Positions 51,335-57,746 of a DNA stretch of 64,000 nt are shown here, one piece after another. The stretch is taken from contig OZ260108.1 in the NCBI GenBank assembly GCA_965284665.1, forward strand, positions 1,450,588-1,514,587. The letters run 5' to 3'. Numbering within the stretch: position 1 is the first letter of the stretch; each line of letters begins with the position of its first letter. This DNA comes from Sphingomonadaceae bacterium. GTDB taxonomy: Bacteria; Pseudomonadota; Alphaproteobacteria; Sphingomonadales; Sphingomonadaceae. The translations under genes and the position numbers were made by a program. The notes beneath the pieces were generated by a model. It worked only from the letters and a program-made list of their open reading frames with translations, ran no database searches and was not told where the DNA came from.

Positions 51335-52312
51335 CTAATCGTTGCTGCTGAGCACCTTGGCAAAGCTGGCGGGATCGGTGTTGCTGCCGGTCAGCATGAT
51401 CACCGTGCGTCCGTCGAGCGGCACCTTGCCGGCCAGCGCCGCCGCCAGCGCCGCCGCGCCGCCGGGCTCCAGCACCAGATGCAGCCTGGAAAAGGCAAAG
51501 CGCTGCGCCGCGCGCACCTCGGCCGGGGTGACGACCAGGCCATAGGCACAACGCTCCTTCAGGATCGCGAAGTTGATTGGCCATGTTGCGGGAGTCTGTA
51601 GCGCATCGCATTCCGTCGGCGGCGCATCCTTGGCGACGCGCTGGATTTCGCCCGTCGCCAGACTGCGCGCCACGTCATCCCAGCCTTCGGGCTCGACCGG
51701 CACGATCTCGGCCTCCGGGCAGGCGAGGGCGAGGCCAGCGGTCAGCCCCCCGCCGCCGCAGCAGGCGACGATCCGGGTTGAACCATCCAGCCCGCGCGCG
51801 CGCAACTGAGCAATAATCTCGATCCCGGCCGAACCCTGGCCCTCGATCACCCAGGGATCGCCATAGGCATGGACCAGCGTAGCGCCGGTCTGGTCGATCA
51901 GCCGCTGGGCCACGGCATCGCGGTCCTCGCCGCCGGGACGGTCATAGAGCACGACATCGGCGCCCATTGCCCGGGTGGCATCAAGCTTCACCTGCGGCGC
52001 ATCGACCGGCATGACGATCGTGGCCGGAATGCCCAGCCGCGCTGCTGCCCAGGCGACGCCCTGCGCATGGTTGCCGCTCGAAACACCGACCACGCCGCGC
52101 TGGCGCTCGTCTTCCGACAGGTCCGAGAGCCGGTGCCAGGCACCGCGGATCTTGAAGGCGCCGATCGGCTGGAGGCTATCTGCCTTGCACCACACTTTTG
52201 CCCCGTTGACCTCGGTCTCGAGGAGTGGTGTCTGCACCAGCAGTTCGGCGATCTTGGCGGCGGCGCGGGCCACGCCTTCGCTGGTCGGAGCGCGCATCGG
52301 TTGTGTCGTCAT
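51335..52312 (-). CDS. PLP-dependent threonine/serine dehydratase (racemase-like) family
   Basis: SLQPIGAFKIRGA, SSGNHAQG, CGGGGL, EPGGA. Confidence 0.92.
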   Translation of the reverse strand: MTTQPMRAPTSEGVARAAAKIAELLVQTPLLETEVNGAKVWCKADSLQPIGAFKIRGAWHRLSDLSEDERQRGVVGVSSGNHAQGVAWAAARLGIPATIVMPVDAPQVKLDATRAMGADVVLYDRPGGEDRDAVAQRLIDQTGATLVHAYGDPWVIEGQGSAGIEIIAQLRARGLDGSTRIVACCGGGGLTAGLALACPEAEIVPVEPEGWDDVARSLATGEIQRVAKDAPPTECDALQTPATWPINFAILKERCAYGLVVTPAEVRAAQRFAFSRLHLVLEPGGAAALAAALAGKVPLDGRTVIMLTGSNTDPASFAKVLSSND

Positions 52313-52361
52313 AAAACCAGCCTATATGCGCGCCTTCGCCGCGGTCAAAGGAGAGATAGAG

Positions 52362-53573
52362 GTGAGCAAGGTTCTGGTGATCGGTGCGGGCGGCGTCAGC
52401 TCGGTCTGCGTCCACAAGATGGCGATGAACGCCGGGATTTTCAGCGAAATCCATCTCGCCAGCCGGACCAAGGCAAAGTGCGATGCGATCGCCGCTTCGG
52501 TGAAGGAGCGCACCGGCGTTACCGTTTCGACCTATGAGATCGATGCAGAGGAAGTGCCCGCGCTGACCCGCCTGATCCAGCAGATCGGCCCCAAGCTGGT
52601 AGTCAATCTGGCGCTGCCGTACCAGGACCTGCCAATCATGGATGCCTGCCTTGCCGCCGGCGTCGATTACCTCGACACCGCGAACTATGAGCCGAAGGAC
52701 GAGGCCAAGTTCGAATACAAGTGGCAGTGGGCCTATCAGGACCGCTTCAAGGAAAAGGGCCTGATGGCGCTGCTCGGTTCGGGTTTCGATCCGGGCGTCA
52801 CTTCGGTCTTCGCGATGTGGCTCAAGAAGCACAAGCTCAAGACCATCCGCACGCTCGACATCCTCGATTGCAACGGCGGCGATCACGGCCAGGCCTTTGC
52901 CACCAACTTCAACCCGGAAATCAACATCCGCGAAGTGACAGCGTCGGCGCGCCACTGGAACCAGGGCGTGTGGGTCGAGACCCCGGCGATGACGATCCGG
53001 CAGAACTTCGATTTCGAAGCCGTTGGCCCCAAGAACATGTACCTGATGTATCATGAGGAGCTGGAAAGCCTGGCCAAGTTCCTGCCCGAGCTGGAGCGCG
53101 GCCGCTTCTGGATGACCTTTGGCGATGCCTACATCAACCACCTGACCGTGCTGCAGAATGTCGGCATGACCGGGATCGAGCCGATCGTGTACCAGGGCAA
53201 GGAAATCGTCCCGCTGCAGTTCCTCGCCGCCGTACTGCCCAAGCCCGAAACGCTGGGTCCGACCACCACCGGCAAGACCAATATCGGCGATATCGCGACC
53301 GGCATGGCGCTCGATGGCTCGGGCGAAAAGACCTATTACATCTACAACATCTGCGACCATGAAGAGGCGTTCCACGAAACCGGGAACCAGGCGATCAGCT
53401 ATACCACCGGCGTTCCGGCGATGATCGGCGCGGCGATGATGCTGACCGGCGCCTGGCGGGGTGAGGGCGTGTTCAACATGGAGCAGCTGGATCCCGATCC
53501 CTACATGGACATGCTCAACACGCAGGGTCTGCCGTGGCAGGTCAAGGAACTGGCCGGGCCGCTTGAGTTTTGA
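52362..53573 (+). CDS. Carboxy(nor)spermidine dehydrogenase (saccharopine dehydrogenase family)
   Basis: IGAGGV, NLALPYQDL, YLDTANYEP, GFDPGV, DCNGGDHG..FATNFNPEINIRE; upstream of nspC; GTG start 52362. Confidence 0.92.
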   Translation: MSKVLVIGAGGVSSVCVHKMAMNAGIFSEIHLASRTKAKCDAIAASVKERTGVTVSTYEIDAEEVPALTRLIQQIGPKLVVNLALPYQDLPIMDACLAAGVDYLDTANYEPKDEAKFEYKWQWAYQDRFKEKGLMALLGSGFDPGVTSVFAMWLKKHKLKTIRTLDILDCNGGDHGQAFATNFNPEINIREVTASARHWNQGVWVETPAMTIRQNFDFEAVGPKNMYLMYHEELESLAKFLPELERGRFWMTFGDAYINHLTVLQNVGMTGIEPIVYQGKEIVPLQFLAAVLPKPETLGPTTTGKTNIGDIATGMALDGSGEKTYYIYNICDHEEAFHETGNQAISYTTGVPAMIGAAMMLTGAWRGEGVFNMEQLDPDPYMDMLNTQGLPWQVKELAGPLEF

Positions 53574-53947
53574 GGCCGGCTTGCTCCGTACTGGCGGGCG
53601 CTGCGGCACTTGTCTTGCTGGGCGCTACCGCTCCGCGCGCGGCGGTGGTCCCCCCTGAGTTTCGCGGGGAATGGACCAACGAGCCGCGCTATTGCGGGGT
53701 TGAGGGGGACGGTCTTGATTCCGTACTGACGGTGACGGACGGCTCGGTCGGCTATTTCGAAAACCAATGGCGTGTGAAGTCGGTGCGGCGGACCGGTAAG
53801 GGGATCGCGATCCGCTATCACCTGCGCGCCGATTTCGATATGTATGCGCCTAATTACCTGCGCCTGTCGGCCGACCGGCAGCGCATCTATACCAGCGATG
53901 ACCGGCGCGACACCGGCTACAAGCGCTGCCCGAGGAAAACGCGATAA
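53570..53947 (+). CDS. Small secreted hypothetical protein
   Basis: Signal peptide, FRGEW...C...YKRCP; overlaps both neighbours' stop/start codons. Confidence 0.65.
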   Translation: MRPACSVLAGAAALVLLGATAPRAAVVPPEFRGEWTNEPRYCGVEGDGLDSVLTVTDGSVGYFENQWRVKSVRRTGKGIAIRYHLRADFDMYAPNYLRLSADRQRIYTSDDRRDTGYKRCPRKTR

Positions 53948-55146
53948 TGGAAACCAGAGCCGGCGATCCGGGCGCGTTCGCCCAATTCGATCTCTCCCGC
54001 GTCGACAGTCCCGCCTTCGTGGTCGATGCCGCGAAGCTGCGCGCGAACCTCGCCGTGCTGGCAGACGTACGCGACCGCGCCGGGATCAAGGTGCTGGCGG
54101 CTCTCAAGGCCTTCTCGATGTGGTCTGTCGCGCCGATCGTGGGTGAGTATCTCGACGGCGTCTGTACGTCAGGCCTGTGGGAAGCGCGGCTTGCCTCCGA
54201 GTTCTACGACGGCGAGATCGCGACCTATTGCGCCGCCTACAAGCCGGAAGACCTCGACGATATCCTGCGCCTGTCGGACCATGTGATCTTCAATTCGCCG
54301 CAGCAGATCGTCCGCTGCTCGGCCATCATCGAGGCGGCGCGGGCGAGGGGGGAAAGCTTTGACATCGGCCTGCGGATCAACCCGCTGCATCCCGAAGGCG
54401 AGGTGCCGCGCTATGATCCTTGCGCGCCGCACTCGCGGCTCGGCTTCCCGATTGACCAGCTGACGGCAGAGCACATGGCCCTGGTCGACGGGATCCACAT
54501 GCACACCCTGTGCGAGCAGGATCTGGAGCCGTTGAAGCGCACCTGGGACGTGGCTTTCGATTGCCTCGAGCCCTATTTTGGCGAGATCAAGTGGATCAAC
54601 CTGGGCGGCGGGCATCACATTACCCGGGCCGATTACCAGCGCGACGAACTGGTCGAATTCCTGCAGGACCTGAAGGACGATACCGGGGCCGAGGTCTATC
54701 TTGAGCCGGGTGAAGCCGTAGCGCTCGATGCCGGGATCCTGGTTGGCACCGTGCTCGACCTGGGCGAGAACGGCATGCCGGTGGCGATCGTTGACATTTC
54801 CGCGACCTGCCACATGCCGGACGTGATTGAGGCGCCCTATCGTCCGGCGATGCTGGGTGAGCTGCCGCAGGTGGGCACTGATGTGGACGAGGGCGCGGGC
54901 GGCGCCGTGCGGCTCGGCGGGCCGTCGTGCCTCGCCGGCGACGTGATCGGCGACTATCGCTTTGCCGAAGGCCCGCGCGTCGGCCAGCGTTTCGCTTTCC
55001 TCGACCAGGCGCATTACTCGATGGTCAAGACGACGACCTTCAACGGCGTGCCGTTGCCTTCGATCTGGCTGTGGGACAGCGAGACCGACCAGCTCGAATG
55101 CGTGAAGCGGTTCGGTTACGAGGACTTCCGCGACCGGCTTTCCTGA
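53947..55146 (+). CDS. nspC: Carboxy(nor)spermidine decarboxylase
   Basis: ALKAFS, SGLWEA, GLRINP, HMHTLCEQ, GGGHHIT, EPGEA, YSMVKTTTFNG. Confidence 0.93.
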   Translation: METRAGDPGAFAQFDLSRVDSPAFVVDAAKLRANLAVLADVRDRAGIKVLAALKAFSMWSVAPIVGEYLDGVCTSGLWEARLASEFYDGEIATYCAAYKPEDLDDILRLSDHVIFNSPQQIVRCSAIIEAARARGESFDIGLRINPLHPEGEVPRYDPCAPHSRLGFPIDQLTAEHMALVDGIHMHTLCEQDLEPLKRTWDVAFDCLEPYFGEIKWINLGGGHHITRADYQRDELVEFLQDLKDDTGAEVYLEPGEAVALDAGILVGTVLDLGENGMPVAIVDISATCHMPDVIEAPYRPAMLGELPQVGTDVDEGAGGAVRLGGPSCLAGDVIGDYRFAEGPRVGQRFAFLDQAHYSMVKTTTFNGVPLPSIWLWDSETDQLECVKRFGYEDFRDRLS

Positions 55147-55182
55147 GGCACAGTCCCCGGCATAACAAAGCCGGAGAGCGCA

Positions 55183-56427
55183 GTGCCTGACAAGATCCTT
55201 GATGCCCATTCGTCGGACCCCGTCACCATGGGCTGGATGGAGGGACTTCCGCCCGCGCCGGACAAGCGGCTGGCCTGGGAGCGGGCGGATCACATGCGTT
55301 TTCCGACCCACCGCTATGCCTATTCGCACATGCGCGAGTTCCTGCCGACTGCGCGCGTCTCGCGCGGAACGGGGCCAGTCTGGAACCTGCCGGTGGCACT
55401 GCGCGACGATATCGACGCGATCACCTTCAAGGCGATGGATGATGGCCGCGAGCTGACCTGGGCGGAATCGCTCGCGGTAAACTTTACCGATGCCGTGCTG
55501 GTGCTGCACCGGGGCACGATCGTTTACGAGCGCTACCTGGGCGTCACGCGACCGGATACACCCCATATCGCCTTCTCGGTGACCAAGAGTTTCGTCGGCA
55601 CCTTGGCCGAGATGCTGGTGCGCGAAGGCCGGCTTGATCCGCAGGCACCGATTGCGGACCTGCTGCCCGAAATGGCCGGGAGCGGCTTTGCCGATGCCAC
55701 GCTGGCGCAAGTCATGGACATGACCACTGCGCTCGATTTCTCGGAAGAGTACACCGATCCCTCGTCGGGTATCGGGGCGATGAGCAATGCCCTGGGGCTG
55801 ACCCCGCGCGCGCCGGGCTACACGGGGCCGGGTGATGTCTATGCCTTCCTCCCCTCGATCCGCAAAAACGGTGAGCATGGCGAGCGATTCACCTATCGCA
55901 CCTGCAACACCGAAGTGCTCGGCTGGATCTTCGCCCGGACCGAAGGCAAGCGAATCGATCAGGTATTGTCAGAGCGAATCTGGGCGCCGCTGGGGATGGA
56001 GCAGGATGCCGATTTCCTGATCGATTCGACCGGAATGCCCTTCGCTGGCGGGGGACTTAATCCCGTACTGCGCGACATGGCCCGATTCGGCGAAACCATG
56101 CGCTGCGATGGGTACGGCAATGGCGGACAGAACATTGCCCGCGAAGTGGTCGCCGCAGTCAAGGCGGGAGGCAGCAAGGCGGCCTTCGCGCCGGCCGGGT
56201 ACCAGTGGCTGAAGGACGGTTCCTACACCCGCCAATGGTGGATAATGCCCGGAAATCACGGCGCTTTTTCCGCGCGCGGGATTCACGGCCAGGCGATCTA
56301 TATTGATCCGGTGGCAGAGGTGGTGATCGCCCGGTTTGGCTCCCATCCCATCGCTGCGAACACCGCCTTCGACCCCACCTCGCTGCCCGCGTTCCGGGCA
56401 GTCGCGGAGCACCTCGCCAGGGGGTGA
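55183..56427 (+). CDS. Serine hydrolase, beta-lactamase class C / 6-aminohexanoate-dimer hydrolase (NylB)-like
   Basis: FSVTKS (SxxK), FTYRTCNT, ARGIHGQ. Confidence 0.88.
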   Translation: MPDKILDAHSSDPVTMGWMEGLPPAPDKRLAWERADHMRFPTHRYAYSHMREFLPTARVSRGTGPVWNLPVALRDDIDAITFKAMDDGRELTWAESLAVNFTDAVLVLHRGTIVYERYLGVTRPDTPHIAFSVTKSFVGTLAEMLVREGRLDPQAPIADLLPEMAGSGFADATLAQVMDMTTALDFSEEYTDPSSGIGAMSNALGLTPRAPGYTGPGDVYAFLPSIRKNGEHGERFTYRTCNTEVLGWIFARTEGKRIDQVLSERIWAPLGMEQDADFLIDSTGMPFAGGGLNPVLRDMARFGETMRCDGYGNGGQNIAREVVAAVKAGGSKAAFAPAGYQWLKDGSYTRQWWIMPGNHGAFSARGIHGQAIYIDPVAEVVIARFGSHPIAANTAFDPTSLPAFRAVAEHLARG

Positions 56428-56470
56428 TTTTCACTTGCGATTAAGGCGCGAATCTTTATAGCCCGCCCCC

Positions 56471-56555
56471 GCTGCCCCAAGGGGACTTCCAATAACCGCA
56501 AGGCAGCCTCGTCTTCGTGTTACCTGGCCGGAAGGCCTATTGGGGGTCCCTTGAG
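56471..56555 (+). ncRNA. Structured 5' leader (candidate cis-regulatory RNA) of the ornithine decarboxylase
   Basis: ~16-bp helix 56478-56494/56538-56553 covering the SD; alternative GCUGCC/GGCAGC helix; GGCC-GGAA-GGCC hairpin; promoter-like TTGCGA-N16-TATAGC at 56435-56462. Confidence 0.55.
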
Positions 56556-57746
56556 TTGCACCAGTATCCTGACGCTCTGTCCGTAGTTCGCGCGCTCGCG
56601 CCCGACGAACCGGTCATCCTGAACCGCCCGCACGCCGCCACGCGCGCCGCCCGCTTCTTCGTTGAGAAGTTTCCGGGCAAGTCGCTCTATGCGGTGAAGG
56701 CCAATCCCTCGCCGGACCTGCTCAAGGTCCTGTGGGACGCCGGCGTGACGCATTTCGACGTCGCCTCGATTGCCGAAGTGCGGCTGGTCCGGGCTACCCT
56801 GCCCGAGGCCGTGCTGTGCTTCATGCACCCGGTTAAGACCCCCGGCGCGATTGCCGAGGCCTATCACCAGCATGGCGTACGCGTGTTCAGCCTCGATTCG
56901 ACCGAAGAGCTCGAAAAGATCGTCGCGGCAACGGATGGCGCCGAGGACCTGTCGCTCTGCGTGCGTCTGCGCGTTTCGTCGGACTATTCGGAGCTGAGCC
57001 TCGCTTCGAAGTTCGGGGTCGACCTGGCCGATGCCGCTCCGCTGCTCCAGGCCGCCCGCCAGGTCGCGGACAGCCTTGGCATCTGCTTCCACGTCGGCAG
57101 CCAGGCGATGACGCCTTTTGCCTATGTCCAGGCGATGGAACGCGTCCGCGCCGCGATTGTCGATGCCTCGGTCACGATCGACATCATCGATGTCGGTGGC
57201 GGCTTCCCGTCGATCTACCCGGGCATGGAACCGCCGCCGCTGGAAGACTACTTCGGCGTAATCCACCGCGCGGCCGAATCGCTGCCGGTGTCCTATTCGT
57301 CGGAACTGTGGTGCGAACCCGGCCGGGCGCTCTGCGCTGAATACAACTCGCTGATCGTCCGCGTCGAAAAGCGCCGCGGGAACGAGCTGTACATCAACGA
57401 CGGGGCCTATGGTGCGCTCTACGATGCCGCGCATGTCGGCTGGCGCTTCCCCGTGCAGTGCCTGACTGAAGGCGGCAGCGAAGGTGGAGAGGGCTTTGCC
57501 TTCTATGGCCCGACCTGTGATGATGCCGACTATATGGAAGGTCCCTTCCAGCTGCCGGCTGACATCAAGGCCGGTGACTATATCGAGATCGGCATGCTGG
57601 GCGCTTATGGTGCGGCGATGAAGACGGCCTTCAACGGCTTCGGCCAGGCCCAGGCGATCGGTGCGATGGACGAGCCGATGGCCAGCCTTTATCGCGGCGA
57701 TCGTGCCGATCCGCGCCAGAGCGACAACGTCGTCAGCCTGCGCTGA
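56556..57746 (+). CDS. Type III PLP ornithine/lysine decarboxylase
   Basis: YAVKANP, FDVAS, FHVGSQ, DVGGGFP, EPGRAL, GPTCD, GAYG; TTG start 56556. Confidence 0.93.
   Translation: MHQYPDALSVVRALAPDEPVILNRPHAATRAARFFVEKFPGKSLYAVKANPSPDLLKVLWDAGVTHFDVASIAEVRLVRATLPEAVLCFMHPVKTPGAIAEAYHQHGVRVFSLDSTEELEKIVAATDGAEDLSLCVRLRVSSDYSELSLASKFGVDLADAAPLLQAARQVADSLGICFHVGSQAMTPFAYVQAMERVRAAIVDASVTIDIIDVGGGFPSIYPGMEPPPLEDYFGVIHRAAESLPVSYSSELWCEPGRALCAEYNSLIVRVEKRRGNELYINDGAYGALYDAAHVGWRFPVQCLTEGGSEGGEGFAFYGPTCDDADYMEGPFQLPADIKAGDYIEIGMLGAYGAAMKTAFNGFGQAQAIGAMDEPMASLYRGDRADPRQSDNVVSLR

Follow-up and report, generated by a model that had tools for sequence, protein, structure and literature searches.

The described RNA that bears most closely on the locus presented here is the odc1 motif (Brewer et al. 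2021, RNA Biol 18:2417; PMC8632094). Its reported traits are a stem, P1, that carries the RBS in its 3' shoulder, a large loop, and a pseudoknot between the 5' end of the RNA and this loop, which was modelled as forming together with P1. The main start codon is UUG, a second UUG lies 2 nt upstream, and there is a uORF of 11 codons that is invariant in length. In lacZ fusions of the Sphingomonas echinoides leader, expressed in E. coli from a foreign promoter, both UUGs were found to initiate, and use of the uORF exceeded that of the main ORF about 3-fold. The mutants M4-M6 abolished expression of the main-ORF reporter and M4 and M5 barely altered that of the uORF, where the M5 and M6 templates, as printed in Table S2, also bear the mutation of the uORF start, which complicates their reading (PMC8632094).

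An orphan structured leader that likewise precedes ornithine decarboxylase (ODC) genes in Alphaproteobacteria is the speF RNA (RF00518; Corbino et al. 2005, PMC1273637). A preliminary description of the DNA analyzed here proposed that the ODC leader of this genome was either a divergent speF RNA or a new motif. A comparison with both published leaders led to a different assignment.

The ODC locus and the class of its leader

The gene at 56556-57746 of the forward strand encodes an ornithine decarboxylase-type PLP decarboxylase of 396 aa, which matches Pfam Orn_Arg_deC_N at 8e-36 and also Orn_DAP_Arg_deC. It begins with UUG, 2 nt past the start codon of an overlapping uORF, and the ODC orthologues in 149 of 151 family genomes align with it from this codon, as residue 1, onward. 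The weak start that had been attributed to the gene is the UUG at 56556. Within the window (the whole stretch of DNA that was analyzed, 64,000 nucleotides) ODC is a lone gene, towards which an aminolevulinate-synthase-like gene runs in convergent orientation, and the flanking genes vary from genome to genome. The polyamine context that had been put forward is real: carboxyspermidine dehydrogenase (CASDH)-like and nspC-like genes are located just upstream of the ODC locus.

A promoter-like region can be read from the sequence at 56435-56462 of the forward strand, with a -35 hexamer TTGCGA (56435-40), a 16-nt spacer and a -10 hexamer TATAGC (56457-62). A simple sigma-70 scan of the sequence made no call on this pair; relatives have equivalent CTTGCA/TTTACA and TATA(G/T)C boxes at an equal distance. 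The transcription start is predicted near 56469. The promoter hexamers, and likewise the helices, the hairpins, the SD and the UUG, had all been placed correctly in the preliminary description.

Positions 56469-56586 very probably constitute a standard member of odc1 (uORF-25-1), that is, a cis-acting leader that controls the ribosome start site on the ODC mRNA. The element precedes ODC in an alphaproteobacterium and has P1 with the RBS, a pseudoknot with the loop, the twin UUG and the 11-codon uORF. Moreover, a pairwise alignment with the wild-type S. echinoides odc1 insert of Table S2 (PMC8632094) matched block for block, the common blocks being GCUGCCCCAUGGG(G)ACUUCC...ACCGCAAGGCAGC...GG(G/A)GGUCCCUUGAGUUGCAC. 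They include the CCGCAA stretch that was altered in M4-M6; with the Table S2 sequences aligned to the window, the mutated positions correspond to C56497 (M4), C56499 (M5) and A56500 (M6). The differences from published odc1 are that the SD reads GGGGG instead of GGAGG, that P1 is longer by 4 bp at its inner end (AAUA/UAUU), that the spacer is longer and contains a GGCC-GGAA-GGCC hairpin, and that A takes the place of U between CCCCA and GGGG. On this sequence comparison the leader is already known as the odc1 motif of Brewer et al. (PMC8632094), and the proposal of a new motif gives way to that assignment; there is no new class.

A search of Rfam 15 returned no family for the leader, even at E<=10, and none in the window at the gathering score. 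The notion that the leader is a divergent member of RF00518 is exceedingly improbable, the gene association being the only thing that the two have in common. Besides yielding nothing in the leader, RF00518 (gathering score 37 bits) was not found in the whole genome, nor in one other genome of the family that was searched. The same search recovered matches in 6 of 151 class genomes, 5 of them above the cut-off, so that the positive control worked. The speF loci involved (L100-L105) have no blocks in common with the leader and lie 60-160 nt from an ODC start that is a single AUG. In fact, speF RNAs, of about 115-155 nt, look unrelated in both sequence and fold, and they are without the twin starts and the overlapping uORF that the leader here possesses.

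Fold and conservation of the leader RNA

The comparative set consisted of 93 fetched Sphingomonadaceae ODC leaders; pairing and the uORF stop were scored over 92 leaders. The odc1 motif was present in all 93. A pattern scan matched at least 120 species, and the names of nearly all of them belong to Sphingomonadaceae; relatives with the same leader bear names such as Sphingomonas, Novosphingobium and Erythrobacter. In this genome the motif occurs in a single copy. The leader blocks are nearly invariant over about 90 genera, although the ODC proteins are only 66-88% identical. More specifically, GG(G/A)GGUCCCUUG, the 3' strand of P1, is invariant or nearly so in the 92 leaders, and the loop bases CCGCAA (56496-56501, forward strand) are at least 90% conserved (set A1). 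By this comparative evidence the structured, strongly conserved leader is real, and the earlier claim of a leader RNA acting in cis ahead of ODC holds. Two coding explanations of the conserved 5' block were considered and rejected. An in-frame GTG at 56517 would require that the spacer keeps the frame, and its length varies without doing so. An ATG inside CCCCAUGGGG, common in relatives, is replaced by AAG in the window, and there too the spacer is not frame-preserving.

P1 is formed by CAAGGGGACUUCCAAUA (56478-56494), which has its conserved core at 56481-56490 and with its ACUUCC mimics the 16S anti-SD, and by UAUUGGGGGUCCCUUG (56538-56553), which contains the SD GGGGGU (56542-47) and the start of the uORF (both strands on the forward strand). 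Together they make 16 pairs with G56484 bulged, and they cover the GGGGG of the SD (56542-46). The long helix is present in the MFE fold. In the predicted ensemble the SD bases are at least 99% paired and the 5' strand of the P1 core at least 93%, and the ODC start UUG at 56556, placed 2 nt beyond P1, is mostly unpaired. Burial of the SD by the main helix, as proposed earlier, is thus what the folding predicts. The duplex amounts to -22.7 kcal/mol, and in a nested model the release of the RBS would cost about 17 kcal/mol. The MFE z-score of the leader (-0.62) and the shuffle control, in which a duplex of the strength of P1 was equalled in 91 of 400 dinucleotide shuffles, are not significant; such single-sequence measures are uninformative for GC-rich RNA of this kind.

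Over the 92 leaders the P1 core was 98% paired. Covariation was sought in this core in the same leaders and none was found, because both strands are nearly invariant; what speaks for the pairing is therefore that the strands are complementary and that the published model contains it. The pair A56480-U56551 and the innermost four (AAUA/UAUU) are local features, so that the long helix is not conserved over its whole length. At the inner end, the extension averages 1.76 bp versus 1.47 bp with shuffled partners, which indicates weak covariation, and it is absent in 26 of 83 leaders. Both GNRA-capped hairpins that had been pointed out are present. The hairpin CC-GCAA-GG (56496-503) includes the conserved loop bases. 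The hairpin GGCC-GGAA-GGCC (56526-56537, forward strand) lies in the variable spacer and is optional: it occurs in about half of the genus and is missing from most of the family sampled, and S. echinoides has GGC-GCAA-GCC at its place.

The second helix pairs GCUGCC (56471-56476) with GGCAGC (56502-56507), the latter directly 3' of CCGCAA and within the loop of P1 (both on the forward strand), and it matches the published odc1 pseudoknot. It is 98% paired over the 92 leaders and its third pair shows compensatory change (U-A in 78, A-U in 9 and C-G in 2). Since it covaries, this crossing helix is real as judged from the alignment. It had been presented as competing with P1; the helix itself stands, but in the published model it is a pseudoknot that coexists with P1 (PMC8632094). 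With the 16 bp that P1 has here, a linker of 7 nt between P1 and the pseudoknot hardly seems long enough for the two helices to form completely at the same time. On geometric grounds only, the inner A-U pairs of P1 may need to open. As to this linker, expanded hairpins in three species (L035, L040 and L041) suggested a P2 hairpin CCC/GGG; a simpler reading is that in these species the linker from the pseudoknot to P1 carries insertions.

The arrangement of the two helices bears on the reading of the leader as a two-state riboswitch, in which putrescine, spermidine or ornithine would toggle between the RBS-sequestering helix and a mutually exclusive GCUGCC/GGCAGC helix, such that ODC is switched on or off and the uORF is inessential. 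We consider this unlikely. The helices come in pseudoknot order (a-b-a'-b') and were modelled as coexisting, and the CCGCAA mutations hit the main ORF with M4 and M5 barely affecting the uORF, unlike what would be expected of a simple RBS occluder (PMC8632094). In addition, the strongly selected second start and the fixed stop of the uORF are left unexplained. The sequestration of the SD in a stable predicted helix, the highly conserved non-helical core (CCGCAA and ACUUCC), and the linkage of the element to ODC only, within a polyamine gene context, would all suit a riboswitch, which the authors of the motif also raised as one possibility (PMC8632094). The literature that could be searched, including the motif paper, names no ligand.

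Over long stretches of the leader the sequence itself is invariant, and not just the pairing. Invariance of this kind is typical of RNA that contacts a protein or the ribosome as well as of ligand pockets, and it would fit a protein acting in trans, be it ODC itself, a ribosomal protein or an antizyme-like factor, that reads the invariant loop and the pseudoknot and gates both starts. Such a protein is nevertheless quite improbable. No candidate regulator gene is conserved beside the locus, where the neighbours vary and ODC is alone in the window, and the start-site behaviour was retained in E. coli, without any sphingomonad-specific factor (PMC8632094).

Twin UUG starts and the 11-codon uORF

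The second UUG at 56551 and the conserved overlapping uORF were overlooked in the preliminary description. The uORF spans 56551-56586 of the forward strand, out of frame with ODC, and runs from UUG 56551 through 11 sense codons (MSCTSILTLCP) to TAG at 56584-86. The start pair consists of UUG (56551-53, below UUG1), AG, and UUG (56556-58, below UUG2), with a gap of 2 nt. This arrangement is found in all family leaders but two, one with GUG/UUG (L096) and one with a 1-nt gap (L062).

The stop of the uORF is at codon 12 in 90 of the 92 leaders (84 TAG, 5 TAA and 1 TGA), and an independent leader set had the 11-codon uORF in 112 of 116 cases. The stop is created by codon 10 of ODC, which is GTA, CTA or TTA in 91 of the 92. 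Elsewhere in the same ODC genes GTA makes up 4.5% of the Val codons and CTA plus TTA 1.5% of the Leu codons, and the background stop density in the uORF frame is 2.2% per codon. These codon counts indicate that the position of the stop is under strong purifying selection and is held against codon bias, and that any of the three stops serves. Together, the second UUG and the conserved 11-codon uORF characterize the element as a device for start-site choice, rather than as a plain on/off occluder of the RBS.

The uORF peptide falls into two main classes and is not conserved beyond the constraint imposed by the overlapping ODC frame. The codon-position entropy over nt +11 to +32, by which the constraining frame was sought, gave no clear periodicity. 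As the peptide is not independently conserved, it is unlikely to cause ribosome arrest in the way of SpeFL or TnaC.

The mechanism that we consider most likely is that the fold partitions initiating ribosomes between a decoy uORF and ODC. When the SD is open, its 4-nt spacing would favour UUG1; the ribosomes on the uORF would then occlude UUG2, and productive use of UUG2 would require the pseudoknotted fold. The balance would be shifted by a signal, for which the polyamine or ornithine status is a plausible source.

Considerably less probable is a sensor centred on the uORF itself, in which translation of its 11 codons would be the sensing step and the fold would set the basal ratio only. The step could, for example, be a polyamine effect on UUG initiation, the preference for SD spacing, termination at UAG, or backward re-initiation onto UUG2. 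The polyamine modulon of Igarashi and Kashiwagi speaks for such a sensor: in E. coli, polyamines modulate initiation at UUG and from a distant SD, read-through of UAG, and +1 frameshifting. So do the length and the stop of the uORF, which are kept more strictly than most of the leader, and the starts, which change as a pair: UUG/UUG in the family, AUG/AUG in sister families with a different 5' strand. Against it, the near-invariant upstream RNA domain is left unexplained, and the peptide has its two main classes and shows no clear entropy periodicity.

The AUG/AUG versions deserve a closer description. In four genomes from outside the family, AUG-AG-AUG stands where the family has UUG-AG-UUG, two from one sister family (L024 and L106), one from another (L025) and one from elsewhere in the class (L120). 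All four keep a uORF of 11-12 codons that ends in a ...GUAG or ...UUAG context, and they lack ACUUCC as well as CCGCAA. In L024, L025 and L106 the first AUG is still buried in a hairpin; the MFE fold of L120 leaves this AUG unpaired. Among 40 other ODC leaders surveyed across the class, twin starts were enriched, with 7 of 40 at the ODC start, but the lengths of the uORFs were mixed (2, 12, 18, 21 and >28 codons). Statements on variants are restricted here to the close AUG/AUG versions.

Tentatively, the module of twin starts and an overlapping 11-codon uORF may predate the RNA fold of odc1 and be separable from it, a possibility to which we give well under even odds. If this were so, the strengths of the two starts would be kept matched, both weak or both strong, and the regulatory principle would be that two overlapping initiation sites compete ratiometrically. 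Termination at the conserved point, which lies 28 nt downstream, would then belong to the mechanism, e.g. via occlusion or backward re-initiation.

The proposed start-site choice in comparison with other controls of polyamine synthesis

Bacterial leaders whose conserved fold seems to select one of two overlapping starts are few, and the odc1 RNA is among them; the gene that it precedes encodes the committed enzyme of polyamine synthesis. The present analysis adds three refinements: the stop of the uORF is selected against codon bias, its peptide is not independently conserved, and sister families have AUG/AUG variants. Taken together, these argue, at the level of sequence, that it is the act and the end-point of uORF translation that matter, and not the peptide. 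Read in this way, the refinements narrow the experiments needed to solve the odc1 motif.

Control in cis of polyamine synthesis by a short ORF ahead of an ODC gene is also known from SpeFL of the enterobacterial speF-potE operon. SpeFL is a separate upstream ORF of 34 codons with a conserved peptide, which senses ornithine in the exit tunnel of the ribosome and acts via Rho and mRNA structure (bioRxiv 10.1101/604074). In contrast, the uORF described here has 11 codons, runs across the main start in a different frame, and encodes a peptide without independent conservation.

Among eukaryotes, polyamine-responsive uORFs include the MAGDIS uORF of AMD1 and the uCC of AZIN1/ODC1, which has a near-cognate start. 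With these the odc1 leader shares, by analogy only, the competition of a weak or non-AUG upstream start with the main ORF, in a gene of the polyamine pathway. The eukaryotic systems work through scanning and ribosome queuing and have conserved peptide motifs, whereas the SD-sequestering pseudoknot belongs to the leader described here.

Identity of the leader as odc1

The leader in front of the gene for an ornithine-decarboxylase-type PLP enzyme (ODC; 56556..57746) is the known odc1 (uORF-25-1) motif, and neither a speF RNA nor a new class. For odc1, 272 alphaproteobacterial examples have been described, with an extended P1 hairpin, a large loop, the RBS in P1's right shoulder and a pseudoknot that joins the 5' end to the P1 loop (Brewer et al. 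2021, RNA Biol 18:2417, PMC8632094). The main start is a UUG, preceded two nucleotides upstream by another UUG that opens a uORF of 11 amino acids, the length of which never varies (PMC8632094). In lacZ fusions in E. coli both starts were used, the uORF about 3-fold over the main ORF, and three point mutations just 5' of the pseudoknot strand abolished main-ORF expression; no ligand was identified (PMC8632094). Those reporters show two functional starts, and a dependence of main-ORF expression on the loop that adjoins the pseudoknot.

All corresponding elements are found on the forward strand of the window. The upstream gene ends with a stop codon at 56425-27, and 3' of it a -35-like TTGCGA (56435-40) and, after a 16-nt spacer, a -10-like TATAGC (56457-62) can be read from the sequence; the transcription start of the leader is a prediction. 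The 5' strand of P1, CAAGGGGACUUCCAAUA (56478-94), pairs with the 3' strand UAUUGGGGGUCCCUUG (56538-53) in 16 pairs that leave G56484 bulged and enclose the GGGGG SD. Sequence complementarity further defines a crossing helix between GCUGCC (56471-76) and GGCAGC (56502-07), and CC-GCAA-GG (56496-503) and a GGCC-GGAA-GGCC hairpin (56526-37) lie between the P1 strands. The preliminary description had placed the promoter-like boxes, both helices and both hairpins in exact agreement with the sequence, and had proposed a divergent speF motif or a new one. The window leader aligns block for block with the published S. echinoides insert (Table S2, PMC8632094), which contradicts the reading as a new motif. 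By this alignment P1 is what had been described as the long helix, the helix described as competing with it is the published pseudoknot, and the 'CC-GCAA-GG hairpin' matches the conserved loop targeted by the mutations in the paper. In the window, the positions changed in the published mutants M4, M5 and M6 are C56497, C56499 and A56500, respectively. The twin-start uORF, the defining feature of odc1, had been overlooked.

As printed in Table S2 (PMC8632094), the M5 and M6 reporter templates contain CCCUUCAGUUG, which means that they also carry the M2 change (UUG1 to UUC); the M4 template does not. If this is no typographical error, it affects the interpretation of the M5 and M6 results. Later papers that mention odc1 were not found in the literature searched.

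Membership of speF was considered and rejected. A scan against Rfam gave no match in the leader, even at E<=10, and RF00518 (speF) is absent from the source genome. Applied to 151 genomes of the class, the same search detected speF in 6 (5 over the cut-off); these RNAs have nothing in common with the window leader and are located 60-160 nt ahead of a single AUG.

Folding and conservation

P1 is present in the MFE fold, with a duplex energy of -22.7 kcal/mol. It hides the SD (>=99% paired in the ensemble) and the upstream start UUG1, and release of the RBS would cost ~17 kcal/mol, whereas the ODC start UUG2, just beyond the end of P1, is mostly unpaired. Taken alone, the single-sequence fold is not beyond chance for a GC-rich RNA (z-score of the MFE -0.62), and neither is the duplex, as one equally strong occurred in 91 of 400 dinucleotide shuffles.

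ODC orthologues occur in 149 of the 151 sampled genomes of Sphingomonadaceae. Our comparison covered 93 leaders of the family, drawn from about 90 genera, plus a few from sister families. While the ODC proteins of these relatives are only 66-88% identical, the leader blocks, CGCUGCCCCA(A/U)GGG(G)ACUUCC..ACCGCAAGGCAGC on the 5' side and GG(G/A)GGUCCCUUGA(G/A)UUGCAC on the 3' side, are almost invariant. A coding role of the blocks is ruled out by the spacer between them, which differs in length and sequence among the leaders without preserving a reading frame. The GGCC-GGAA-GGCC hairpin represents an optional insert. In an alignment of 92 leaders, covariation was found in GCUGCC/GGCAGC, which is 98% paired and contains a compensating pair (U-A 78, A-U 9, C-G 2), and this shows that the pseudoknot is real. 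In the P1 core, 98% paired yet without variation in sequence, none was found. Only one third of these sequences keep the A56480-U56551 pair, and pairing of the inner AAUA/UAUU is not preserved among them. The earlier interpretation is partly supported, in that the leader is a real, conserved, RBS-sequestering element linked to ODC.

The source genome has a single copy of the motif. A pattern scan of species-representative genomes gave at least 120 matches, and nearly all of those listed bear Sphingomonadaceae names. One match (L218), in a MAG that carries the name of the betaproteobacterium Hydrogenophaga intermedia, probably reflects a sphingomonad contig placed in the wrong bin, not a true occurrence outside the Alphaproteobacteria.

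The uORF, its proposed role and the gene context

UUG1 (56551-53) lies within the 3' strand of P1, 2 nt 5' of UUG2 (56556-58), and opens an out-of-frame uORF that, read from the sequence, runs for 11 codons on the forward strand to a TAG at 56584-86. The stop occupies the identical codon in 90 of the 92 aligned leaders (84 TAG, 5 TAA, 1 TGA). A second, independent set, collected by a pattern without a stop codon, has the 11-codon uORF in 112 of 116 genuine leaders; the remainder show an additional stop before it, an insertion of 5 codons or, in one case, a true loss. The stop is made out of ODC codon 10, and this codon is GTA, CTA or TTA in 91 of the 92 aligned leaders. Elsewhere in the same genes GTA makes up 4.5% of the Val codons and CTA plus TTA 1.5% of the Leu codons, and the background stop density in the uORF frame is 2.2% per codon. 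A fixed stop position, built of codons that are rare in the ODC frame, shows that translation from UUG1 is under selection. The uORF peptides fall into few classes that follow the ODC N-terminus, and no frame periodicity was seen in the per-site entropy of the uORF region. Two loci with rare natural variants of the uORF constitute test cases for the importance of its length: L223 (Sphingorhabdus sp. MAG), where GAA replaces GTA, the stop is lost and the uORF has 48 codons, and L174 (Erythrobacteraceae bacterium Alg239-R51), where a 5-codon insertion yields a 16-codon uORF that still ends in GUAG.

We propose that the fold sets how ribosomes are shared out between ODC and the uORF, which would act as a decoy. 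Compared with the 16S anti-SD, the 5'-strand ACUUCC would be the poorer partner of the SD by one wobble, so that ribosomes could compete with it. Once the SD is open, the 4-nt spacing would favour UUG1, ribosomes on the uORF would cover UUG2, and some signal would tip the balance. Judged by geometry, the 7-nt linker ACCGCAA can hardly bridge the 16 bp that P1 has in this window, and formation of the pseudoknot is probably accompanied by opening of the four inner pairs that are not conserved.

Polyamine genes neighbour the leader on its upstream side (51975-56427). Within 51975-53573 lies a gene of the saccharopine dehydrogenase family that is a candidate for carboxyspermidine dehydrogenase. 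It is followed at 53947-55146 by an nspC-like gene, of carboxynorspermidine decarboxylase type, that scores 392.7 bits, slightly below the TIGR01047 cut-off of 409. These genes make polyamine feedback on ODC plausible. Between them and odc lies a beta-lactamase-family serine hydrolase (55183-56427) to which no role is assigned. A terminator-like hairpin, CACCTCGCCAGGGGGTG then ATTTTCAC (56410-56434), overlaps its 3' end. The stretch ATTTTCACTTGC is conserved in many genera, even with a different upstream gene, and may belong to the odc promoter (an UP-like element plus the -35 box) and not to a terminator tail.

Twin starts beyond the family

Within the family, one member (L096) has the start pair GUG/UUG. 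A survey of 40 ODC leaders from more distant genomes showed some enrichment of twin starts; the uORFs there are heterogeneous, so the idea that the twin-start module is older than the odc1 fold is only a lead. In four genomes outside Sphingomonadaceae, AUG-AG-AUG replaces UUG-AG-UUG before ODC: L024 (1372-1503) and L106 (1369-1500) of one sister family, L025 of another sister family of the same order, and L120 of an alphaproteobacterial family elsewhere in the class. All have an out-of-frame uORF, 11-12 codons long, with the same GUAG or UUAG context at its end. A hairpin buries AUG1 in L024, L025 and L106, but not in the MFE fold of L120. The ACUUCC and CCGCAA blocks of odc1 are missing from all four; possibly, these AUG/AUG leaders are an odc1 variant with strong start codons.
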